DNA of 64,000 nt from Crenothrix sp. D3 (GTDB lineage Bacteria > Pseudomonadota > Gammaproteobacteria > Methylococcales > Methylomonadaceae). The number at the start of each line of letters is the position of its first letter. Positions within the stretch are counted from its first letter, which is position 1. A model generated the notes under the pieces. It searched no databases, was not told the origin of the DNA, and worked only from the letters and a program-made list of their open reading frames with translations. Position numbers and translations under genes: made by a program. The DNA lies in contig MBQZ01000103.1 in NCBI GenBank assembly GCA_002134785.1, positions 26,865-90,864 on the forward strand, written 5' to 3'. Shown in pieces: positions 8,005-20,816 of this stretch.

Positions 8005-8250
8005 ATGAAAAATACATTGTTAGCATCAAAACGACTGGCATTGTCAGAAAGTGGCTTTGTTTTTGATCCTGTGTCAGGGCAGAGCTTTTCCGTTAATGAG
8101 TCGGGGCTGGTGTTTCTGCGTTTAGCGCAACACGAAGATGACCTCGATAAACTCACCACACAACTGGTTGAACAATTTGATGCCAGCAGCGTAGAAATTA
8201 AACGTGATGTGCAGGATTTTATTAATCGCCTGCAAGGATTTTTAAAATGA
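8005..8250 (+). CDS. PqqD-family protein (RiPP-recognition-element-like peptide chaperone)
   Basis: 81 aa. 'GFVFDPVSGQSFSVNESGLVFLRL...DLDKLTTQLVEQFD...IKRDVQDFINRLQGFL' follows the PqqD/PF05402 pattern. Its stop overlaps the next start (ATGA). Confidence 0.65.
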   Translation: MKNTLLASKRLALSESGFVFDPVSGQSFSVNESGLVFLRLAQHEDDLDKLTTQLVEQFDASSVEIKRDVQDFINRLQGFLK

Positions 8251-9311
8251 GCATCACGGTCGCCGTTACAGGCATGAATGCCCGCGCAGATAATCCAGGA
8301 CCTGGTTTAGCCATCGCACGGTGTTTAAAAGAATCCAACACGCCCACTCGCGTGGTCGGTTTGGGTTATGAAGCATTAGACCCCGCGTTATATCACCGTG
8401 GTTTTGTCGATAGAGGTTATTTACTGCCCTACCCTTCACACGGTGAAGATGCTTTATTAGCGCGAGTGTGTGAACTCCATGAACGGGAAAAATTCGACGT
8501 ATTAATTCCCTGTTTAGATGCAGAAATGCAAAGTTTTGCACGGCTCGCACCAACCTTAGCAGGCATGGGCATTCGTACTTTTATTCCTAATAGCCATCAA
8601 TTAGCCTTGCGCAGTAAAGACCGTTTACCCGAATTGGCAAAAGAAATCGGCATTGCATCGCCCAAAACCCAAGCCATTTATCAAGCGAACTTTTTTCACA
8701 GCTGTCAAAGCCAAGACTGGCAGTATCCGCTGATGGTTAAGGGTTTATTTTATGATGCCAAAATCGCTTATAACGCAGAGGAAGCTGTCGCGGCATTTCA
8801 CCGTATAGCAGGTGAATGGGGCGTTCCCGTGTTGGCGCAAAGCTGGATTGGTGGTGAAGAGATTAATCTGGCGGGTGTCGGTGATGGTGAAGGCGGTTTA
8901 GCGGGTGCAGTGATGATGAAAAAACGCGCCCTGACCGATAAAGGAAAAGGTTGGGCAGGTATTAGCATTCATGATGAAGAACTACTTGCTGCCGCCCAGA
9001 AATTTTGTGCAGTTACTAAATGGCGCGGCGGTTTAGAGCTGGAAATGTTGCGCGATACCCAAGGCGGTCTGCATTTAATTGAAATTAATCCCCGTTTTCC
9101 CGCGTGGATTTATTTATCCGCAGGCGTGGGCTGTAACTTACCTGAACTGTTGGTCAAACTAGCATTAGGTGAAAAATTAATCCCCTCGACACCGACACCC
9201 GCAGGCGTGCTGTTCATTCGCTATGCCGAAGAAGCCATTGTGTCATTAGCTGATTTTGAAAATATAACCGTGTGGGGCGAGACGCTACGCACAGAAGGAG
9301 CATTCGCATGA
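8247..9311 (+). CDS. ATP-grasp carboxylate-amine ligase, substrate unknown
   Basis: 'PLMVKG', 'EEINLAGVGDGEG' and 'LELEMLRD...LHLIEINPRFPAW' (E-x-N Mg/ATP motif), 354 aa. Confidence 0.75.
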   Translation: MSITVAVTGMNARADNPGPGLAIARCLKESNTPTRVVGLGYEALDPALYHRGFVDRGYLLPYPSHGEDALLARVCELHEREKFDVLIPCLDAEMQSFARLAPTLAGMGIRTFIPNSHQLALRSKDRLPELAKEIGIASPKTQAIYQANFFHSCQSQDWQYPLMVKGLFYDAKIAYNAEEAVAAFHRIAGEWGVPVLAQSWIGGEEINLAGVGDGEGGLAGAVMMKKRALTDKGKGWAGISIHDEELLAAAQKFCAVTKWRGGLELEMLRDTQGGLHLIEINPRFPAWIYLSAGVGCNLPELLVKLALGEKLIPSTPTPAGVLFIRYAEEAIVSLADFENITVWGETLRTEGAFA

Positions 9312-10693
9312 AAAATATCACCACTAAAAACCCGTGGGTCGCCCCTGTCATAGTTCGTCATGCGTCTAGCGGCATGAATAAATTCGGTGGGGTGCGTGAT
9401 GCGCAATTTCGCGATGAAATTGCTGGTGTGTCGATTGCCGAACTGGTAGAAAAATACGGTTCGCCGCTGTTCGTGTTATCGGAAGAACATTTACGCCAAT
9501 CGGTGCGCCGTATTAACCGCGCTTTTACCACCCGCTATGCCAAAGTGCGCCAAGCGTGGTCGTATAAAACCAATTATATCAACGCGGTCTCCGCCATTTT
9601 GCACCAAGAAGGCTGTGATGCCGAAGTGGTGTCTGAATTTGAATACGACAAAGCCCGCCGTTTAGGTGTGCCTGCGTCGCGGATTTTCTTTAATGGCCCC
9701 TATAAATCACGCGGTGCATTAACCAAAGCGGTGAGCGAAGGGGCGCGAATTCATGTTGACCATTTGGACGAACTAGCATTATTAGAAGAAGTCGCGGCTG
9801 AACTGGGCATTTTGAACTTCCCGATTACCATTCGCTTGAACTTTGATACAGGCTTTGCGGAAAACTGGGGACGCTTTGGGTTTAACTTAGAAAACGGGCA
9901 GGCAATGGAAGCGGCGCGGCGTATTGCCGCCAGTCCCAATTTAAAACTCACAGGGCTGCATAATCATATCGGCACGTTTATCACTGACCCGCGTGCTTAT
10001 ACCGCGCAAGTCGGCATCATGATTAATTTTATGAACAATGTGGAAGCGGCGACTGATTGCACCATCACCACGCTGGATATAGGCGGCGGTTTTGCCTCGC
10101 GTAATGCCATGCAGGGCGTGTATTTACCGCCTGAACAAATTACCCCCACCGCTGAGCAATACGCCGAAGCGATTTGTGGCGCGTTAGCGATTGGCTTAAA
10201 AGACCGTGAACAACACGGCAAGCCGTTACCCGAATTAGTGTTAGAAACAGGTCGCGCGGTAGTCGATGAAGCGGAATGGCTAATTTCCAGCGTGGTGGCG
10301 AATAAACGCCTGCCGACTGGGCAACGCGCTATGGTGCTGGACGCAGGCGTGAATATTTTATTCACCGCGTTTTGGTATAACCACGAAGTACGCCCTGCGC
10401 GTCCTGTGGAAGGTATCCCCGAAGACACCGTGTTGTATGGCCCGTTGTGTATGAACATTGATGTGGTGCGTCAATCAGTGAGTTTGCCGCCGCTGAAAAC
10501 AGGCGATTTATTGTCGTTTTGGCCTGTCGGTGCTTATAACAATACCCAGTGGATGCAGTTTATTCAGCTCCGCCCTGCGGTGGTCATGGTGCGACAAAAC
10601 GGACAGGTGGATGTAGTGCGCCGCGCGGAAACGCTGGATGATGTGGAAGAACCTGAACGCTTGCCAGCGGATTTGCAACCTGATTTTTCTTAG
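9308..10693 (+). CDS. PLP-dependent decarboxylase, Orn/DAP/Arg decarboxylase (alanine-racemase-fold) family
   Basis: 'GSPLFVLSEEHLR', 'AWSYKTNY' (PLP lysine context), 'LDIGGGF' and 'ETGRAVV' motifs. ATG at 9308 overlaps the upstream stop (ATGA). Confidence 0.8.
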   Translation: MKNITTKNPWVAPVIVRHASSGMNKFGGVRDAQFRDEIAGVSIAELVEKYGSPLFVLSEEHLRQSVRRINRAFTTRYAKVRQAWSYKTNYINAVSAILHQEGCDAEVVSEFEYDKARRLGVPASRIFFNGPYKSRGALTKAVSEGARIHVDHLDELALLEEVAAELGILNFPITIRLNFDTGFAENWGRFGFNLENGQAMEAARRIAASPNLKLTGLHNHIGTFITDPRAYTAQVGIMINFMNNVEAATDCTITTLDIGGGFASRNAMQGVYLPPEQITPTAEQYAEAICGALAIGLKDREQHGKPLPELVLETGRAVVDEAEWLISSVVANKRLPTGQRAMVLDAGVNILFTAFWYNHEVRPARPVEGIPEDTVLYGPLCMNIDVVRQSVSLPPLKTGDLLSFWPVGAYNNTQWMQFIQLRPAVVMVRQNGQVDVVRRAETLDDVEEPERLPADLQPDFS

Positions 10694-10699
10694 CCACTT

Positions 10700-10770
10700 G
10701 TAGGGGCAATCCCTTGTGGTTGACCTGATAACGACCTATTCACAGGGCTGGCACAAGGCACAGCCCCTAC
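10700..10770. repeat. Palindromic intergenic repeat, family R1 (GTAGGGGCAATCCCTTGTGGTTG...GGCACAGCCCCTAC)
   Basis: Near-identical copy at 44271-44332. The termini are inverted repeats gtaggggc/gcccctac. Confidence 0.8.
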
Positions 10771-10828
10771 TTTTAGGCTTAACTTAATGGCGACGCTGCG
10801 TGTGGAAACGAGAAATAAAGAATTAACC

Positions 10829-12961
10829 ATGATGACATCACATTCAATCAAAGTTTTTTGCCAACACTTAGCCCAAGGTTACGCGTGGATATTACTCATG
10901 CCCTCCACTCGTGCTGGCGTGGTACTGATAATGGCAACCTTCGCCACGCCCAACATCGCTATCATCGGTTTATTAGGTGCGAGTTTCACATTATTGAGCG
11001 CACGCGGCTTGCGTGTCACCGAGGGCTTGTCGGCGGTTTATGTGTTTAATGGGCTATTAACAGGCTTGTTTCTTGCCGCGCATTATCAAACTACAGTGCA
11101 TCTCTTATTGTTGCTGGTCTTTGCAAGTGTATTAGTTGCCTTAATAACCCATAGCGTTGCGGGCGTATTGTGGCGATTTTCTCAATTGCCTGTATTGAGT
11201 TTGCCGTTTGTCTTGGCGGCGTGGCTGGCGCAACTGGCAGGAACGAGTTACGGCAATTTATTACCTATTGCTGATGCTAGCCATCTGTCTACCGATTGGA
11301 TAGATACTTTTTTTACTAGCTTGGCGAGCATCTTTTTTCAGCCTAATCCGTACTTGGGTGGCGTGTTATTTATCACACTGTTCATCACTTCGCGCACTTT
11401 GGCTTTTTTAGCGGTGTTGGGATTTTTGGCAGGTGTCGGGTGGCACACACTGTTCACGGGTAACGTGGCAGTTTATGTTGCACCGAATTGGATTTTTAAT
11501 TCAATGTTAGCGGCAATGGCAACAGGTGGATTATTTGTCGTTCCCAGTGTTGGCGGTTTGTTATTAGGCACGGTGGCAGCGTTGTTAGCAGCATTATTAG
11601 CGGCGGCACTCAGTCAATGTTTATTGCCTTTTGGTTTATCGCCGTTAGCCTTGCCGTTTTTACTGTCAACGTGGCTGTGTTTGTACACGGCACAACGCTC
11701 TGGAAAACCTGCGTTAGTCGGTGAACGCGTGCAGTTACCCGAAAAATCCTTAGAAGATGGTCGCTTAGCCCGCACACGGCTGGGTAATCCTGCCAGTGTG
11801 GCGTTGATTCCGCCGTTTATGGGAACATGGCAAGTATCACAAGGACGCGATGGCGAACATACGCACCGTGGATTGTGGCGTGATGCGCTGGATTTTATTG
11901 TCACCGAAGACGGGCAGAGTTTTCATGGTAATGGGCTAGTCGTTGAAGATTTTTTCTGTTTTGGTTTGCCGATAGTCTCACCTTGTTATGGGCAGGTAGT
12001 GCAACTACAAAATAATGTGCTTGATAATGCGATTGGTGAAGTGAATTTACGCGAAAACTGGGGCAACTATGTAGTCATCCGTTTGTATGAGGGTGTTTAT
12101 GTATTATTGGCACATTTACGCTATAACAGCCTCAGTGTCACTGTCGGCGATTGGCTAAAAACAGGGCAAGCAGTGGCACAATGCGGTAATTCAGGACGTT
12201 CACCACAACCGCATTTGCATTTTTCGGTGCTACGTCATGCGACACCCGAAGCGGAAACCCGCCCGTTTCATCTCATCGGTGTGTTATTACAAGCCGAAAA
12301 AAACAATGCCGTTTTTCATCTATGGGCAAATCCTCAACAAAACGACAAAGTCACCGCAGCGTGGTTTGGTGCAGTGCGCCCTTTATCATTGCGGGTCGGT
12401 TTAGGACGCAGTTATCGAGTGCGCGTGAATGGCGGGCAATGGCAATCGTGGCAACTGACTCCGCAACTCAATTTAGCAGGGCAGTTTTTGTTAGTGTCTG
12501 AGTCAGGCGCGAGTTGTTGTTGTGAAGAAAATGGTGCGGTCTTTGCTTGTTATGGGCGCGAAGGCGGCGCAGATGTGTTTCTTGATTTATGGCTATTAGC
12601 GGTCGGTTGCACGCCGTCTTCTGAACACGCGAAACAATGGCGCGATAGCCCGCCAACGCGCTTATTACCCAGCCGCTGGCGGTGGTTGAGTGCGTTATTA
12701 GCCCCTTATGCCACGCAAATCAACGCCCACTATGCTCGCAGTTTTGATGATGCGGCGCGAGTATGGCGACAAACAAGTACGCTTTTCTTATTGGGTAAAC
12801 AAGTGATGACCATTGAAACGGCGATTGTTGCTAATAATGGACTTACTTATTTATTAGCAAATAGCGCGGGGCAACGCTGGGAAATGATACTGGAAGGTGC
12901 GTTTCAAACGGGCGATACGGGTGTTCCTGAACGTGAATGGGCGATAGACACGAACATTTAA
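10829..12961 (+). CDS. Fusion membrane protein: N-terminal urea-transporter-like polytopic domain, M23 (LytM) metallopeptidase domain and an unknown C-terminal region
   Basis: About 300 aa of hydrophobic helices. Then 'HTHRGLWRDALDF' (HxxxD) and 'GNSGRSPQPHLHFSV' (HxH), the M23 motifs. The start is uncertain (10787 or 10829). Confidence 0.6.
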   Translation: MMTSHSIKVFCQHLAQGYAWILLMPSTRAGVVLIMATFATPNIAIIGLLGASFTLLSARGLRVTEGLSAVYVFNGLLTGLFLAAHYQTTVHLLLLLVFASVLVALITHSVAGVLWRFSQLPVLSLPFVLAAWLAQLAGTSYGNLLPIADASHLSTDWIDTFFTSLASIFFQPNPYLGGVLFITLFITSRTLAFLAVLGFLAGVGWHTLFTGNVAVYVAPNWIFNSMLAAMATGGLFVVPSVGGLLLGTVAALLAALLAAALSQCLLPFGLSPLALPFLLSTWLCLYTAQRSGKPALVGERVQLPEKSLEDGRLARTRLGNPASVALIPPFMGTWQVSQGRDGEHTHRGLWRDALDFIVTEDGQSFHGNGLVVEDFFCFGLPIVSPCYGQVVQLQNNVLDNAIGEVNLRENWGNYVVIRLYEGVYVLLAHLRYNSLSVTVGDWLKTGQAVAQCGNSGRSPQPHLHFSVLRHATPEAETRPFHLIGVLLQAEKNNAVFHLWANPQQNDKVTAAWFGAVRPLSLRVGLGRSYRVRVNGGQWQSWQLTPQLNLAGQFLLVSESGASCCCEENGAVFACYGREGGADVFLDLWLLAVGCTPSSEHAKQWRDSPPTRLLPSRWRWLSALLAPYATQINAHYARSFDDAARVWRQTSTLFLLGKQVMTIETAIVANNGLTYLLANSAGQRWEMILEGAFQTGDTGVPEREWAIDTNI

Positions 12962-14559: not shown

Positions 14560-14568
14560 CATTGACCG

Positions 14569-14683
14569 TTATTTTTCCAAATAAGTATAAGCGGTTAATC
14601 CCGCTAGTAGTTCTTGTTCATAATCATGCTGGTCTTTGCGCCTGAGCTGGCTTTTCACTAGCTTTTCACGGTTGGCGATTTTT
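14569..14683 (-). pseudogene. Orphan duplicate of the last ~38 codons of speA
   Basis: 115 bp, ~93% identical by eye (8 mismatches) to 18978-19092. It encodes '...REKLVKSQLRRKDQHDYEQELLAGLTAYTYLEK*' versus the SpeA C-terminus '...REKLVNSQLSRKDQHDYEQELLAGLTAYTYLEK*'. Confidence 0.85.
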
Positions 14684-14725
14684 GATAGTCCATACAAACC
14701 AAGGAACTGGATTGGTTTGTAGGAA

Positions 14726-15118
14726 CTATCGTTCAAGCAATGTAAATTGTGTTTGTTCATAAAATAAACTCATAATGCGCCAACCCTGTTCAGTTTGTGC
14801 CACAACTAATACATCCAAGCCTTCACGTTGTTCTCTATCGGCAATCAGCAAATAGTTCGCTTTGATAATAGCGATTTCACCCTGTTGTTGAACGGATACT
14901 TCAGACCACGTTTCTGTAAACACTTTCGCCTGCAACGCGTATGTTTGTTGCTCTTTAACGCAGTCATTCAAACCAAATACTTCGACTTGAGCATTTTTTT
15001 CTAGTCGAACAATGTTTGCGGTTTCATGAAATAACGCTCGCCAGCCAACGAAATTTTTTTGTGTGAGATACAATGGATAGTGCTGTGCAATCAATTGAGG
15101 AGTATTTAAGTTAACCAT
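14726..15118 (-). CDS. Small protein of unknown function, possibly NTF2-like/SnoaL-like (weak call)
   Basis: 130 aa, no signal peptide, with an alpha+beta pattern ending 'GWRIMSLFYE'. The call rests on size and pattern only. Confidence 0.35.
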   Translation of the reverse strand: MVNLNTPQLIAQHYPLYLTQKNFVGWRALFHETANIVRLEKNAQVEVFGLNDCVKEQQTYALQAKVFTETWSEVSVQQQGEIAIIKANYLLIADREQREGLDVLVVAQTEQGWRIMSLFYEQTQFTLLER

Positions 15119-15258
15119 TTGATTTACTTATAAAATTGTCGCTTTATTTTATGTAAATTTTTTTGCTTACCAAGCAGAAAATATTCAATGCGCGGCGAGA
15201 TAAGTAGCTGACCATTTTTTAACTGTTAGCTATAGCTAACCTAATCTATGCAGCTGTC

Positions 15259-16239
15259 TTAAATGGAATCCATGTATTCTCTGGCTGATTTCATCACCGA
15301 TAAACCCGTGGGGGTTAAATCTCCATACTGCTTAACCACACTGTAACCTGCTTCAAAGTTTTTCTGATCCCGAAGCATTGCAGACTCGGCATATAAGTGA
15401 TCTGAATCATTCAGTACACCACTGGCAAGTAGTTTAGACATTGCCCAGTGCATTCGAGCAGAAACATAAGTTGCGTGGTAGATACCATCCATTGGACGCG
15501 AATCAACGCGCAACGGTGATTGGTAAAGCGTGTCATCATCGTTATTGACCAGAGCTTCATCACTGGCAAAACCAAAAAGTAGTATGTGCGCACTTTCGTG
15601 AGCCATTACTTCTATTAAAGCAACTTCGTTTTCATGGGAGGAGGCATTAAGAAAGAGACCACCCCAAAGCATATAAGAAGAGCCACCATCAAACTGGTAT
15701 TCTGCTGTGGAGTCCCCCTCTACCATGATGATTTGACTTACCAGCGCGTCAAATTCTGCTGCCAGTTCAGGGATTGCAGCACTTAGTAAACGATAACTGC
15801 GTTCAAGCCGTTCACGAAAGCATGACGCAGTCTTTGGAGTTGGTGAAAAAATTTCAAATCTAGCGAGGGGATCTGCGTCCATTAGATTAATGTAACGCGC
15901 AACATGGGCAGTGAGCTTGGCATCATCGAGGGCTAATAATTGCCAGTTTTTATCTTGTGGACGTTCTTGTACTAATTCTTTGAGTAATTGTGTGGCACTA
16001 TCGATGTTATCGCTGTCCAATGCCAGCACTAATTCGGTGTAGATGGCAAACGTTGAAGGGGGAAACTTGTCACCTTGATTTAATCCTGTAATCAACTGAG
16101 TCATTGCCTTGGTGTCGAAGTCAATTTGACCATTAATTTGAGTCGCTATGTAGTCTAAGCTTTCAGCCAGTGAACAACGCATTCTGCGATTTATTGCTTT
16201 AGCACGAATCCCACAAGGGGGGAATTTGAAATCAATCAT
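15259..16239 (-). CDS. HExxH-motif protein; resembles the 'HEXXH motif domain'/alphaKG-HExxH peptide beta-hydroxylase family, or alternatively a metallopeptidase
   Basis: 'GGSSYMLWGGLFLN', 'EVMAHESAHILLFG', 'SPLRVDSRPMDGIYHATYVSARMHW'. Confidence 0.55.
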   Translation of the reverse strand: MIDFKFPPCGIRAKAINRRMRCSLAESLDYIATQINGQIDFDTKAMTQLITGLNQGDKFPPSTFAIYTELVLALDSDNIDSATQLLKELVQERPQDKNWQLLALDDAKLTAHVARYINLMDADPLARFEIFSPTPKTASCFRERLERSYRLLSAAIPELAAEFDALVSQIIMVEGDSTAEYQFDGGSSYMLWGGLFLNASSHENEVALIEVMAHESAHILLFGFASDEALVNNDDDTLYQSPLRVDSRPMDGIYHATYVSARMHWAMSKLLASGVLNDSDHLYAESAMLRDQKNFEAGYSVVKQYGDLTPTGLSVMKSAREYMDSI

Positions 16240-16316
16240 AAGAAGAGAAAGCTAAAATAAAGACTTGTCAATTGAGGGGGAGGGGTAATATTTTAGATTT
16301 AACTTTAAAATTACTG

Positions 16317-16362
16317 ATAAAAAACCGCTGCTGGGAGCACAAATAATGTCGCCCAGCAACGG
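16317..16362 (-). terminator. Rho-independent terminator/attenuator just downstream of the repeat-peptide gene
   Basis: On the minus strand, 'ccgttgctgggcgacattatttgtgctcccagcagcgg' is followed by 'ttttttat'. Confidence 0.6.
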
Positions 16363-16383
16363 CTAACAAATGGCTTTTTAGTA

Positions 16384-16608
16384 TTAAACGTCTGGACCAG
16401 TTTTCATGGGGGACGGTACTTTACCAATTTTCGGACTCAGAACAACAGACGGTACTTTACCAATTTTCGGACTCAGAACAACAGACGGTACTTTACCAAT
16501 TTTCGAACCCAGAACAACAGGTAGTTGCTGTTGACTAAGAGAGTGGCTGGCGATTTTAAAACCATAAAGTTTGGATGGGTCAAGATTGATTTTTTTGTTG
16601 GTATTCAT
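16384..16608 (-). CDS. 74-aa peptide with three tandem 12-aa repeats (VVL[GS][SP]KIGKVPS); candidate precursor/substrate peptide
   Basis: ORF with 'aaagga' 10 nt upstream of the ATG. The repeats are encoded by a 3 x 36 bp tandem DNA repeat. It lies between the ATP-grasp and HExxH genes on the same strand. Confidence 0.55.
   Translation of the reverse strand: MNTNKKINLDPSKLYGFKIASHSLSQQQLPVVLGSKIGKVPSVVLSPKIGKVPSVVLSPKIGKVPSPMKTGPDV
16413..16520. repeat. Tandem repeat, 3 x 36 bp, in-frame within the small ORF
   Basis: Units at 16413-16448 and 16449-16484 are identical ('gacggtactttaccaattttcggactcagaacaaca'). The third (16485-16520) differs at 2 positions. Confidence 0.95.
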
Positions 16609-16638
16609 TTGAGCTGATTCCTTTACGTTCAGTTTAGT

Positions 16639-18498
16639 TTAGTTTAGTTGAGTTGGCAGTGTATATTCATTAAGTAGTCGGGTCAATTCGTTGTAGCGAG
16701 TTTTCGATGCTCTATTGTGATTATTCCAATCTTTAATTTCATTATTCACAACTGTGATTTTATCGATTTTATCGATAGGCAAACCACAATGCAGAAACTC
16801 ATCGGTTTGAATGACCAAGAGTATAGCCTCCACCGTTCTATTCATTAGCAAGGCTATAGTTCTGTCAAACAAGCTCTGTGTATTAAGTATAAGTTGCTCA
16901 CCGAATGGCAATAAAGTCAGCTCGTGACTGCTCAGGTAACATTTGACTCCTTCTGCTGTCATTTTCTGCTGACGCTCTTTAGCAATATCAAGCGCGGCAT
17001 CACCACCAACAAAAACTTCCACAGGAATTCTGCCATCATCACTTAGAATTCTGTCGATATAGATGGGGCGATACGGTTTACTGAGTTCTGCTATAAAAGT
17101 AGGTGAAAAATTGATTTCATTGATGACCGCTCCATTTTCATGCCACGGCTGGCTAATATCTACAGACATAAGATCAACGCCAGCGGTTGATAAACCAAAC
17201 AGAGCCGCCGCTCTAATGGTAATGTCCACATTATCAGGATGAATAATTTTTGTAGCTTCTTCAGCTATCCCGCCCCATTCAGTAGACTCAACTTTTCTGA
17301 GAGGGAGAAACTGCCCTTCTTGTGAAAAACTATCAAGTGTCATGCCCACGCTCGCTAAATTTTCCACTGCCATCGCATCAGTCGGGAATGGCTTACTCCT
17401 TTTCCATGGTAATTTTACATTTTCCTTGGCGTTGGCAATGGCAATCAATTCTGCGACCGTGTGAATGCCATCACCTGTCACTGACTTGGGTATTCTTTTA
17501 AAGGCATACAGCAATTCACCACCTGAAATAAATATCCGATGACACACGCCCAATATGTGACGCTCGACCAGCACTGAGGTTGCTTTTGTCAGTTTAACGG
17601 CTAAGTTAAATGCCTCAATGAGTGTTTTTTCATCATTGACATCAATCGTTATACCTTCACCCCGATTCAAATCCAATGGTTTTACTACCACTGGCCAGCC
17701 GATAATTTTCGCTGCGTCAATTGCTTCTTTTTCGGTACTTACCATAATGTGCTGAGGTGCAGGGAGTCCTGCTGCTCGCATCACGGATGCTGAAATGAAT
17801 TTATTATTGCTCAGTTTTGCGCCTATTAACGAATCAGCTTCTGTCGTCGATATTTGAATCAGTTTCAATTTATGCCCCCAGCCAAGTTGGTAGCAACCAT
17901 CTCCGAGATGGCGAAACGGAATTTTCTTATCATAAACAGCTATCAATATAGGCAATGTGGATTTACCAGTTGCTATTTTTTTAGACATTGGCTTTATAAA
18001 TGACTTATCGATTTCATCAAGCAGGGTGTGCAGATATTCACTACTGTGTTGGTTTTTAACAGCATTAACAATAATCTGTAGTGCAACCCAATAAGCCGTT
18101 TTAGTGACATCAGCTGGCATAGAGTCAATAAAAGGTATCGCGGTTACTACAGTGAACTGGCTGGCATTTTGATCGGCTGCACTGACCTTTAGAACCCGCC
18201 CCGCATCAAAAGCAGGTATTTTTACCCCTTGAAGTAAGCGGCTTGTCAAATGCAAAATGCGCCAAACCAGTTCAACAATCATTTTTTCACAAGACCCATC
18301 TTGATACTGTTCCGACGCACCGCAGGGGACTAGAGCAATTTCAAAGGTATTTATTAACCAATCGTCGATTGCTTTAAAATCAACTTGATCAAGACGCGAA
18401 ACATTGAATGTCAGTAACGTGGCTGGTTGCGACATTCCATAATTATAGCCAAATGAGGGCGATTGAATTATCGGGTGATTAGATTTTGTGGTTTCCAT
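16639..18498 (-). CDS. Cyanophycin-synthetase-like ATP-grasp enzyme (N and G domains only; no Mur-ligase-like M domain)
   Basis: 'GWPVVVKPLDLNRGEGITIDV', 'VLVERHILGVCHRIFISGGELLYAFKRIPKSVTGDGIHTVAELI', 'IHPDNVDITIRAAALFGLSTAGVDLMSVDISQPW...AVINEINFSPTF'. These parallel the CphA ATP-grasp motifs (from memory). The protein is 619 aa versus ~870-900 aa for CphA. Confidence 0.75.
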   Translation of the reverse strand: METTKSNHPIIQSPSFGYNYGMSQPATLLTFNVSRLDQVDFKAIDDWLINTFEIALVPCGASEQYQDGSCEKMIVELVWRILHLTSRLLQGVKIPAFDAGRVLKVSAADQNASQFTVVTAIPFIDSMPADVTKTAYWVALQIIVNAVKNQHSSEYLHTLLDEIDKSFIKPMSKKIATGKSTLPILIAVYDKKIPFRHLGDGCYQLGWGHKLKLIQISTTEADSLIGAKLSNNKFISASVMRAAGLPAPQHIMVSTEKEAIDAAKIIGWPVVVKPLDLNRGEGITIDVNDEKTLIEAFNLAVKLTKATSVLVERHILGVCHRIFISGGELLYAFKRIPKSVTGDGIHTVAELIAIANAKENVKLPWKRSKPFPTDAMAVENLASVGMTLDSFSQEGQFLPLRKVESTEWGGIAEEATKIIHPDNVDITIRAAALFGLSTAGVDLMSVDISQPWHENGAVINEINFSPTFIAELSKPYRPIYIDRILSDDGRIPVEVFVGGDAALDIAKERQQKMTAEGVKCYLSSHELTLLPFGEQLILNTQSLFDRTIALLMNRTVEAILLVIQTDEFLHCGLPIDKIDKITVVNNEIKDWNNHNRASKTRYNELTRLLNEYTLPTQLN

Positions 18499-18836: not shown

Positions 18837-18977
18837 TATCATTTTATTGTATTATTGTACGTTAGCTCTATAACCCACTACCGAAAATTTTAAATTTTCT
18901 AGTGACTTTTTTCAAATTTATATGTAGAGAATCTTACACATCTTTAACAACCTTTTCACTTGTTTCAGTAGTCATGG

Positions 18978-20816
18978 TCATTTTTCCAAATAAGTATAAG
19001 CCGTTAATCCCGCTAGTAATTCTTGTTCATAATCATGCTGGTCTTTGCGACTGAGCTGACTATTCACTAGCTTTTCACGATAGGCGATTTTTAATTCTTC
19101 GGTGCTGATATGCACATAATCCAATAAATCAGCGACATTTTCACCTTTGTGCAAATCGTAAAAATGGTAGCCGTTATCATCGAGTTCGATATTAATCGAA
19201 TGGGTATCACCAAACAAATTGTGCATATCGCCTAAAATTTCTTGATACGCACCCAGCATAAAAAACCCAATAAGATACGGCTGTTCGCTATCAATAGCAT
19301 GAATGGGTAGCGTGTGTTCGATATTCTGACCATCAATATATTGGTCAATACGTCCGTCGGAATCACAGGTTAAATCCTGTAATACAGCGCGACGTGTTGG
19401 CTGTTCATTCAAGCGATGAATCGGCATAATGGGGAAAATTTGATCAATCCCCCAGACATCGGGCAGTGATTGAAACAGCGAGAAGTTACAAAACACTTTA
19501 TCTGCCAATTTTTCATCAAGTTCTTGCAAAATGGTCGCTTCGCTTTGATTCGTTGGATTAAGTTGATTTTTAATCTGCTGACAGACCAGCGCGTAATTAT
19601 TTTCAGCAGCCGCTAAGCCATCAATGCTTAATTTATCTTGGGTAAATTGAGTTCGCGCTTCAAACAGTGAGAACTGGGCATTGTGATAATGTTCCGTTAA
19701 ATTCGCGACACTGGGTAACGCTAATAACTCGGCTTCATTGCTGTAAACGGATTCCACATCGGTGACATTGGTGATAAGTACCGCGTGATGCGCAGTCAAC
19801 GCTCTGCCTGATTCGGTAATAATATTCGGTTGCGGCAGTTCTTTTTCTGCACAAATATCGGCAAAACTGCGAACTATATTTTGCGCGTATTCATCCAAAC
19901 TGTAATTAATCGACGATTCACGGCGTGAGCGGCTACCGTCATAATCCACCCCTAAACCACCACCTGCATCAACAATTTTTATGTCCGCGCCCAAACGATG
20001 TAATTCAACATAAAACTGCCCTGCTTCTTTGAGTGCGATTTTAATGTCATGAATATTGGCAATTTGCGAACCCATGTGAAAGTGCATGAGCTTCAGCGTA
20101 TCTAATAAATCCGCTTGTTTTAGACGGTCAATCAGTTGCAATACTTCGTGAGCATGAAAACCGAATTTGGATTTTTCGCCGCCGCTGTTTTGCCATTTAC
20201 CCGCGCTGATACTGGATAAACGAATCCGCACGCCTAATTGTGGCTTTACATTGAGCTTTGCCGCTTCTTCAATAATGAGTTCGAGTTCGAGTGGTTTTTC
20301 AATGACTAGATATAAATCTAAGCCCATTTTCAAACCAATCAACGCGAGGCGAATATAAGCGCGGTCTTTGTAACCATTGCAAATAACTACACCTTTTTTA
20401 GATAACGCCATAATGACGAGTAATTCAGGTTTACTACCTGCTTCCAAACCAATATTATCTGCCGCTAAAATGCCTTCCACGACTTTGCGTTGTTGATTGA
20501 CTTTAATGGGATAAACAGGCGTGTAACTGCCTTGATAATTGTGTTGCACACAGGCTTTAGCAAAGGCGTTTTGTAAGCGTTTCACACGGTCTTTTAAAAT
20601 ATCCGTAAAACGCACTAACACGGGTAGCGACAACTGCTTGTCATTAAGTGATAGAGCTATCTCATATAAATCTAACTCAGTTGCTTGTTCTGAACTGGGT
20701 TTAACGCAGACATGACCTTTATCATTAATGGAAAAATAACCATCACCCCAGTTGTCGATGGCGTAAGTTTGTGCTGATTGCTGGATTGTCCACGTTGGGT
20801 TGGTGCTTGAATTCAC
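18978..20816 (-). CDS. speA: Biosynthetic arginine decarboxylase
   Basis: 612 aa. 'WGDGYFSIN', 'YPIKVNQQ' (PLP lysine), 'GGGLGVDYDG' and the conserved C-terminal region. Confidence 0.95.
   Translation of the reverse strand: MNSSTNPTWTIQQSAQTYAIDNWGDGYFSINDKGHVCVKPSSEQATELDLYEIALSLNDKQLSLPVLVRFTDILKDRVKRLQNAFAKACVQHNYQGSYTPVYPIKVNQQRKVVEGILAADNIGLEAGSKPELLVIMALSKKGVVICNGYKDRAYIRLALIGLKMGLDLYLVIEKPLELELIIEEAAKLNVKPQLGVRIRLSSISAGKWQNSGGEKSKFGFHAHEVLQLIDRLKQADLLDTLKLMHFHMGSQIANIHDIKIALKEAGQFYVELHRLGADIKIVDAGGGLGVDYDGSRSRRESSINYSLDEYAQNIVRSFADICAEKELPQPNIITESGRALTAHHAVLITNVTDVESVYSNEAELLALPSVANLTEHYHNAQFSLFEARTQFTQDKLSIDGLAAAENNYALVCQQIKNQLNPTNQSEATILQELDEKLADKVFCNFSLFQSLPDVWGIDQIFPIMPIHRLNEQPTRRAVLQDLTCDSDGRIDQYIDGQNIEHTLPIHAIDSEQPYLIGFFMLGAYQEILGDMHNLFGDTHSINIELDDNGYHFYDLHKGENVADLLDYVHISTEELKIAYREKLVNSQLSRKDQHDYEQELLAGLTAYTYLEK

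Follow-up and report, generated by a model that had tools for sequence, protein, structure and literature searches.

Oxygenases of the α-ketoglutarate (aKG)-HExxH family take part in the biosynthesis of several ribosomally synthesised, post-translationally modified peptides (RiPPs). Among the described members are ChlBH/ChlH, SjiH, BipH/BpmH, PflC/PosC and the nitrilobacillin Pro hydroxylase. ChlBH β-hydroxylates Asp and His, the nitrilobacillin enzyme β-hydroxylates Pro (PMC13060819), BipH carries out the hydroxylation of a biphenomycin intermediate (PMC12707348), and PflC/PosC combine the β-hydroxylation of Gln strings with oxidative backbone cleavage at the Ala within the motif A-R-M-D (PMC12636437). 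Activity on Lys, Ile or Val, or a partnership with a ligase resembling cyanophycin synthetase (CphA), has not been reported for any characterised member. The subject here is a block of four genes on the minus strand of a 64,000-nucleotide stretch of DNA from the methane oxidiser Crenothrix sp. D3 (contig MBQZ01000103.1), referred to below as the window, in which a putative aKG-HExxH oxygenase, a CphA-like ligase and a short peptide are encoded side by side. The block is probably a RiPP-like cluster centred on the oxygenase, in which both the precursor family and the type of partner ligase are new.

ATP-grasp amide ligases that act on ribosomally made chains are also known. RimK and LysX extend a protein (S6 and LysW, respectively) with amino acids at its C-terminus, and PGM1, the pheganomycin ligase, joins an amino acid to a peptide, the latter serving as the amine partner. 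In the graspetides (microviridin, plesiocin), a leader-guided ATP-grasp (MdnB/C, PsnB) is encoded beside a short, often repeat-containing precursor. CphA2, a shorter relative of CphA1, is built of three parts: an N domain, a G domain of the ATP-grasp type, and an M remnant that is truncated and inactive (PMC10273328).

The block consists of open reading frames (ORFs) of 619, 74, 326 and 130 aa, of which the first three form a cassette of about 3.3 kb. The four co-directional genes, their coordinates and a tandem repeat within the peptide gene had been recorded in a preliminary description of this DNA, with which the ORFs and Tandem Repeats Finder (TRF) agree. The same description proposed an undescribed RiPP-like operon whose peptide belongs to no known class. 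This view is supported by the conservation of the peptide as a family and by the lack of a match among profile models and in the literature; the literature searched contains no description of a HExxH oxygenase paired with a CphA-like ligase, nor of the precursor. PADLOC gave no match for any of the four proteins.

The precursor family and the aKG-HExxH oxygenase

The linkage of the genes was surveyed from both enzymes. On the ligase side, a scan of 185,579 species genomes with an ATP-grasp profile gave 80 loci, and 83 ligase loci were examined when three copies of the window's own locus are included; on the oxygenase side, a scan of metagenomes with a HExxH profile gave 80 loci. In 71 of the 80 oxygenase-side loci, the gene directly upstream of that for the HExxH protein encodes a precursor of the family, the other loci being mostly cut by contig ends, and several loci contain 2–6 tandem precursor genes. 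The ligase is present in 24 of the 80, and in nine of the 23 loci whose flanks each extend for 2.5 kb or more. Judged by these frequencies, the core module consists of the precursor or precursors and the aKG-HExxH oxygenase, with the CphA2-like ligase as a facultative third gene. The preliminary description had emphasised the ATP-grasp next to the peptide; the pair that defines the class is the precursor with the oxygenase.

When present, the ligase is always immediately adjacent (gaps under ~400 nt), in co-directional, convergent or divergent arrangement, and the adjacent ligases fall in three separate clades across several phyla. Seen from the ligase, a HExxH homologue adjoins the gene in 22 of 83 loci, and these loci also carry a short ORF with the same N-terminal sequence. 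Such an ORF beside homologous ATP-grasp/HExxH pairs was looked for in other genomes, as the preliminary description had proposed; it was found, and it represents a conserved family. Clustering of the ligase-side neighbours showed that, antisense artefacts aside, the HExxH gene alone recurs (17 of 81 loci). The three clades of HExxH-linked ligases were recovered in a neighbour-joining tree, and in one of them every member is linked (11/11). The joint recurrence of peptide, HExxH and ATP-grasp genes in unrelated genomes is far beyond chance.

The 74-aa ORF (16384–16608, minus strand) is marked by its sequence conservation as a real gene, and no other ORF of at least 50 aa overlaps it. A profile built from 13 peptides retrieved 296 proteins from a collection of 5.8 billion sequences, those with a name at the source being called ‘hypothetical protein’. 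A profile built from 54 peptides retrieved 712 representatives from 1.84 billion sequences, 87 of them at E ≤ 1e-10, with lengths of 44–184 aa. There was no meaningful NCBIfam match (0 of 54 members) and no Pfam match to the family. The leader follows the consensus M..(I/V)xLDxSKL(Y/L/F)GF(K/R)I and is succeeded by a variable linker and then the core; in the window the leader reads MNTNKKINLDPSKLYGFKI... and the core contains three (G/S)(S/P)KIGK units. A conserved leader and a variable core next to a modifying enzyme are general features of RiPP clusters, and all are found here.

The site logo of the core reads L/I/V-G-A-K-V/I/L-G-x-K, usually as a four-residue repeat (hydrophobic-G-x-K). Neighbouring Lys residues are spaced by four in 488 intervals, well above any other spacing; the median peptide has five KxG sites, and the number of LGAK(I/V)G-type sites per core varies from one to eight. 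Gly (17%), Lys (15%) and Ala (13%) characterise the composition of the core, and Lys is the only invariant side chain and nucleophile of the site. The logo has no conserved position for an acidic residue, and many relatives have GEK or GDK; the absence of Asp and Glu pointed out in the preliminary description is correct for the window's repeats and does not extend to the family. The absence of Cys from the window's repeats was likewise stated correctly.

Multi-unit precursors (P0376, P0384, P0400, P0240) are built of two or three complete leader-plus-site units per polypeptide. Each unit contains exactly one LGAKVG, the sole shared core element, in an otherwise acidic context. These precursors show that the Lys-rich four-residue repeat is not obligatory and that LGAK(V/I)G is. 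Being the only core element common to their units, LGAK(I/V)G is the best candidate for the modification site. The peptides are basic, with a median isoelectric point (pI) of 10.5, and the HExxH clade is uniformly acidic (pI 4.4–5.4); such opposite charges would fit an enzyme–substrate pair.

The tandem repeat of the window (16412–16520, minus strand; 3 × 36 nt) has a period of 36, 3.0 copies and 97% matches according to TRF, and encodes VVLSPKIGKVPS. This 12-aa repeat, earlier taken for the unit of a multi-core peptide, is present in three copies in the 74-aa peptide and in two copies in the 62-aa peptide of the assemblies L001 and L002 (11891–12079); a 63-aa version occurs in the relative L084 (2045–2236). 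The ligases of these loci are identical or 95% identical to that of the window. Because the sister assemblies of the same organism have two copies, the repeat is best regarded as a recent local duplication of one site with its spacer, the conserved unit of the family being LGAK(I/V)G. In L084, the 95%-identical relative, substitutions spare the DNA of the leader and cluster in the spacers that follow KIGK.

The 326-aa protein (15259–16239, minus strand; pI 4.7) matches TIGR04267 (‘aKG-HExxH-type peptide beta-hydroxylase’) with 99.1 bits against a cutoff of 40 over residues 146–316. Residues H214, E215, H218, R244, D246, R248, P249 and H255 are invariant across 39 homologues. The protein can be aligned to ChlH through HExxH...SPxRxDxRPxxGxxHA, where ChlH reads HEHRH...SPWREDLRP..GLLHA, and its metal and aKG ligands are assigned by this motif alignment. 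The AlphaFold2 (AF2) model has a predicted local distance difference test score (pLDDT) of 94.9; its only significant Foldseek matches in the PDB are the HExxH domain of ChlBH (8s5f, E 1e-10, template modelling (TM) score 0.63) and SjiH (22ob, TM 0.67). Profile, invariant motifs and predicted fold all identify the protein as an aKG-HExxH oxygenase (TIGR04267/IPR026337), in keeping with the earlier suggestion of a peptide hydroxylase. Some NCBI records already name members of the clade ‘aKG-HExxH-type peptide beta-hydroxylase’ or ‘HEXXH motif-containing putative peptide modification protein’.

The enzyme shares its family, motifs, fold and precursor-adjacent gene with the known aKG-HExxH RiPP oxygenases. 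A parallel is offered by PflC/PosC, in which many repeated residues are hydroxylated by one enzyme and whose A-R-M-D cleavage motif, of the pattern A-(basic)-(hydrophobic)-x, resembles A-K-(I/V)-G. Unlike the enzymes of the known systems, the oxygenase here stands alone, with no radical SAM, MNIO or nitroreductase partner, and belongs to a clade of its own comprising acidic proteins of 300–340 aa. The precursor family also differs from the known substrates of aKG-HExxH enzymes, being neither NHLP nor triceptide.

Two groups of divergent loci deserve mention. A distant subgroup (L032, L057, L065, L067, L069), from Novosphingobium, Burkholderiaceae and other metagenome-assembled genomes (MAGs) of Pseudomonadota, has HExxH proteins 28–34% identical to that of the window; the leader of its precursors differs (L-x-P-Y-G-S...), the AK(V/I)G site is shared, and L057 contains two ligase paralogues. 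In MAGs of Hydrogenophilales and Thiobacillus (L025, 7478–7891, and L026, 7482–7891), the cassettes appear decayed: the HExxH gene is reduced to its last ~71 detectable codons, and in L026 the precursor is truncated to 38 aa beside an intact ligase gene.

The CphA2-like ATP-grasp ligase

The 619-aa protein (16639–18498, minus strand) had been described as an ATP-grasp of the cyanophycin synthetase type rather than the microviridin type. Structural comparison confirms this, the best matches being CphA1 and CphA2. Cyanophycin synthetase models of NCBIfam give 240 and 212 bits, both well short of the respective cutoffs; for the former the cutoff is 877, and only model positions 117–573 of 871 are covered. 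When a profile of 41 homologues was compared with the PDB, CphA1 (7wac, 7lg5) and the shorter CphA2 (8fxh, 7ta5) were the best solved relatives. The AF2 model (pLDDT 91.4) is aligned by Foldseek with CphA1 and CphA2 over ~630 columns at TM scores of about 0.65–0.75 (7ta5/8fxi, 0.62–0.69 over ~620–630 columns). According to the model, the protein has the architecture of CphA2: an N domain, a G domain that looks active, and an M remnant that is truncated and inactive and has no P-loop. An assignment to CphA1 itself was considered and rejected: the protein has 619 aa, its 240 bits lie below the cutoff, and it has no M-domain P-loop and has replacements at the acidic residues presumed to bind Arg.

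The likeness to CphA2 (7ta5, 8fxh/8fxi) includes the three-part architecture, the size (629–642 aa in CphA2) and an alignment over the whole length; the sequence identity, however, is only 20–24%. In contrast to CphA2, the ligase is not cyanobacterial, has no adjacent cphA1 or cyanophycinase and is linked to a ribosomal peptide, whereas CphA2 is linked to β-Asp-Arg recycling.

Residues were mapped using the printed SuCphA1 alignments and the roles described for StCphA2 (PMC10273328), the correspondences with StCphA2 being derived by motif counting. The ATP-grasp catalytic set K273, E312, R321, E461 and N463 is invariant in the 41 homologues. R321 is aligned with SuCphA1 R309 and would correspond to StCphA2 R308, which contacts the bound cyanophycin chain, whose C-terminus is phosphorylated (PMC10273328). 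The Arg of the acyl carboxylate is thus conserved with respect to CphA2, and the Asp and Arg for the incoming substrate apparently are also: D374 and R401 are invariant and, by the CphA1 alignments and motif counting, appear to match StCphA2 D362 and R389. By the same derivation, the positions of StCphA2 N393/S395 are replaced by S405 and E407, the latter being variable. The positions of SuCphA1 E215/D219 are occupied by K228/N232; E215/D219 are taken to include the acidic residue that binds the Arg side chain of the primer, as mapped from StCphA2 D212 (PMC10273328). The Mur-ligase P-loop, GTNGKT in CphA1, reads GGDAAL here. With its catalytic set intact and the presumed primer-binding residues and the P-loop replaced, the 619-aa enzyme has the appearance of an active amide ligase in which the capacity to bind cyanophycin is lost.

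RimK, LysX and PGM1 offer a functional model for such an enzyme, and the 619-aa protein also gives weak profile matches to this group. They lack the CphA N domain and the M remnant, the sequence similarity is only distant, and they act on chains with a terminal Glu or on peptides of an unrelated kind.

Elsewhere in the family, the ATP-grasp occurs as the C-terminal domain of AMP-binding (adenylating) fusions of ~1,080 aa (L011, 6468–9785; L019, 6408–9782; L056, 6294–9611; P0030, P0035–P0057). A second AMP-binding gene is often adjacent to these fusions, and there is no HExxH gene or precursor nearby.

Proposed chemistry and competing explanations

The favoured interpretation, held with rather better than even confidence, is that of a RiPP-like cassette in which the HExxH oxygenase carries out a leader-guided oxidation of the core and the CphA2-like ligase, as a facultative enzyme, forms an amide bond. 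Gene content, family memberships, predicted folds, conservation and linkage are as observed above; the two chemical steps, the order in which they occur and the identity of the modified residues are reasoned from them. The conserved N-terminal leader of the ribosomal precursor would guide the oxygenase to the core, and the enzyme, dependent on aKG and Fe(II), would most likely oxidise each LGAK(I/V)G site, as can be supposed by analogy with its relatives. The most probable modification would be the β-hydroxylation of the invariant Lys, followed in probability by that of the β-branched hydrophobic neighbour. Given the resemblance of A-K-(I/V)-G to A-R-M-D, a genuine alternative is an α-oxidation of the Ala, Ser or Gly preceding the Lys, accompanied by cleavage of the backbone as PflC/PosC perform it. 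The CphA2-like ligase, where present, may act as the second enzyme, using ATP to convert a carboxylate to an acyl-phosphate and then to an amide; most likely, one or more free amino acids would be added to the carboxyl terminus of the peptide, as by the CphA G domain and RimK.

Several points weigh against this interpretation. About 55 of the 80 ligase loci (~70% of the family) have neither a HExxH gene nor a precursor nearby, the contexts being variable and many of the ligases being fused to an AMP-binding domain, and no residues convincingly separate the peptide-linked from the unlinked ATP-grasps. On both counts, the ligase may have a general substrate other than a peptide. The C-termini of the precursors are not conserved, which gives no positive support for C-terminal extension, and if the oxygenase produced amide termini in the manner of PflC, the ligase would be left with no carboxylate. 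Clustering of the neighbouring ORFs of the 80 ATP-grasp and 80 HExxH loci revealed no conserved protease, exporter/transporter or NTF2-like gene. Finally, the whole of the chemistry is argued by analogy.

The alternative that fares best, although unlikely, is that the ATP-grasp acylates the ε-amines of Lys with an activated amino acid or small acid, yielding a branched, cyanophycin-like decoration, and that the oxygenase acts independently. It would agree with Lys being the only invariant nucleophile of the site, with the absence of a carboxylate from the window's repeats and with the replacement of the acidic residues that bind cyanophycin Arg, which would mean a changed acyl-donor pocket; PGM1 provides a precedent for a ribosomal peptide as the amine partner. 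However, enzymes of the CphA, RimK, GshB and Ddl types activate the carboxylate of the growing chain or first substrate, with the free amino acid as the nucleophile, and D374 and R401, the apparent holders of the incoming amino acid, are conserved. Moreover, two thirds of the precursor/HExxH loci have no ligase, hence the essential step cannot be this acylation. C-terminal addition is favoured over Lys acylation because the acyl-carboxylate and incoming-amino-acid residues are kept and the primer-binding residues are changed.

A more speculative version of the favoured scheme, also to be considered unlikely, has the Lys/Gly-rich peptide, once modified by the oxygenase, serve the ligase as a primer or scaffold to which amino acids are added without a template, either as a C-terminal tail or as branches on Lys. 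If true, the product would be a hybrid between a RiPP and the product of a cyanophycin-type amino-acid polymerase, and the repeated LGAK(I/V)G would provide the first Lys (or Ile/Val) substrate for the aKG-HExxH family.

It is doubtful that the ATP-grasp is not peptide-directed at all, making a small peptide or homopolymer or modifying another protein in the manner of RimK, and is merely co-inherited with the other two genes. The majority of the ligase family without HExxH gene or precursor, its variable contexts, the many AMP-binding fusions and the absence of specificity-determining positions that mark the linked clades are what such an explanation would predict. It does not readily account for the immediate adjacency of the ligase, maintained with gaps under ~400 nt in three orientations, three clades and several phyla, nor for the window, where the precursor starts 30 nt after the ligase stop and ahead of a terminator. 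Leader and C-terminal features of the precursor also track the ligase: the x of KL-x-GF is aromatic in 22 of 28 precursors from ligase-containing loci and in five of 17 from loci without the ligase, and the ‘KPx’ end in 0 of 28 and six of 17, respectively. Both comparisons are confounded by phylogeny and are weak hints, from sequence, of a link between ligase and peptide.

Graspetide-type chemistry, in which the ATP-grasp would form side-chain ester or amide macrocycles in the core, is highly improbable: the short repeat-containing peptide beside an ATP-grasp and the GEK/GDK of some relatives, whose acidic residue at the x position could pair with Lys, recall graspetides, but the enzyme is of the CphA type and of a different clade from the graspetide ATP-grasps, PsnB (7dro) appears only at rank 43 with a TM of 0.25 over 270 columns of generic ATP-grasp core, there is no conserved acidic site residue (and none in the window's repeats) to form the Thr/Ser–Asp/Glu or Lys–Asp/Glu pairs, and it is the oxygenase that is obligatory, the ligase being dispensable in most loci. 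The resemblance to graspetides noted in the preliminary description accordingly holds for the architecture and fails for the enzyme type and the acceptor residues, and assignment to the graspetide class, which calls for a PsnB-type macrocyclase and conserved Asp/Glu acceptors, was rejected. An unmodified cationic peptide, membrane-active or nucleic-acid-binding, whose neighbouring enzymes act on other substrates, is just as hard to credit: the Lys/Gly-rich four-residue repeat, the pI of ~10.5 and the absence of a protease and an exporter are in its favour, whereas the near-obligate pairing (71 of 80 loci) with a family known only as peptide-modifying oxygenases, the leader/core organisation, the tandem precursor copies, the multi-unit precursors and the variants that are not cationic yet keep LGAKVG all speak against it.

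Genomic setting and significance

The start codon (ATG) of the precursor gene lies 30 nt past the stop codon of the ATP-grasp gene and is preceded by the Shine–Dalgarno sequence AAAGGAA (16618–16624). Directly 3′ of the precursor gene is a hairpin resembling an intrinsic terminator (16317–16364, minus strand), with a 13-bp stem followed by UUUUUU; its folding energy is −26.8 kcal/mol (z = −4.4), and none of 200 shuffled sequences was equally stable. Standing ahead of the HExxH gene, this hairpin could serve as an attenuator. A precursor gene placed before a terminator or attenuator, with further enzymes downstream, is a common layout of peptide-modification operons. A scan for the promoter consensus found six sites against 11.9 expected by chance, that is, fewer, and was given no weight; Rfam gave no matches in the cassette region. 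As stated in the preliminary description, the four-gene block contains no protease or exporter gene.

The fourth gene, the 130-aa ORF (14726–15118, minus strand), is confined to L001, L002 and L084, which represent the window's own lineage, among more than 160 loci. Within the island it is a passenger peculiar to this lineage, outside the conserved system of which it had been considered a member. The suggested NTF2-like nature of its product is borderline: the match to the Pfam family Lumazine_bd_2 reaches 22.0 bits with a cutoff of 22.1, SnoaL_3 is matched at E 0.014, and there is no PDB match.

The cassette sits between speA and a convergent TPR gene. The functional 3′ end of speA (NCBIfam speA, 821 bits), with a TGA stop, forms the right-hand copy (18977–19095, minus strand) of a 119-nt direct repeat; the left-hand copy (14568–14686, minus strand) is an orphan speA 3′ end with a TAA stop, which matches Arg_decarbox_C and lies just ahead of the native terminator. 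The copies are 92% identical and duplicate the final 38 codons of speA, with the homology ending exactly at the stop codons. All four genes are contained in the 4.4 kb between the copies, in which there is no integrase. Because the 3′ end of speA is duplicated up to the stop codons, the block looks like 4.4 kb of DNA inserted into the 3′ end of speA together with a speA 3′ end of its own, the left-hand repeat marking the original end of speA before insertion. Such an insertion is consistent with one-sided homologous recombination or a decayed integrative element. A 19-nt inverted repeat at 14684–14730 (89% complementary, 9-nt loop) spans the stop codon of the 130-aa ORF (14726–14728) and extends to the start of the orphan speA fragment; a terminator and a vestige of the insertion junction are both conceivable.

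A second, separate operon on the plus strand (8005–12961, continuing to 14515) also looks like a peptide-modification system, in which no precursor was identified. It encodes a PqqD-family chaperone (81 aa), an ATP-grasp of the ATPgrasp_Ter type (354 aa), a PLP enzyme resembling DAP/Orn decarboxylases (473 aa) and a 724-aa protein in which an M23 peptidase is fused to a membrane domain resembling urea transporters, followed by a secreted 295-aa protein and a TPR protein. In L001, which belongs to the same contig as the window, positions 1–362 carry dnaB annotated with an intein, Hom_end_hint lying between DnaB_C segments.

If the interpretation of the block as a RiPP-like cassette is correct, the precursors represent a new and widespread RiPP-like family, whose precursor representatives number at least 700 in Alpha-, Beta- and Gammaproteobacteria, with further members reported from Planctomycetota and from the MAG of a cyanobacterium. 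Its minimal module would consist of two genes, for the precursor and the aKG-HExxH oxygenase, and a Lys-centred repeat would be added to the substrates of this oxygenase fold, which was recognised only recently and for which few are known. The large, uncharacterised group of non-cyanobacterial CphA2-like ligases would gain its first peptide-linked role, and cyanophycin-type chemistry would be connected with ribosomal peptides.

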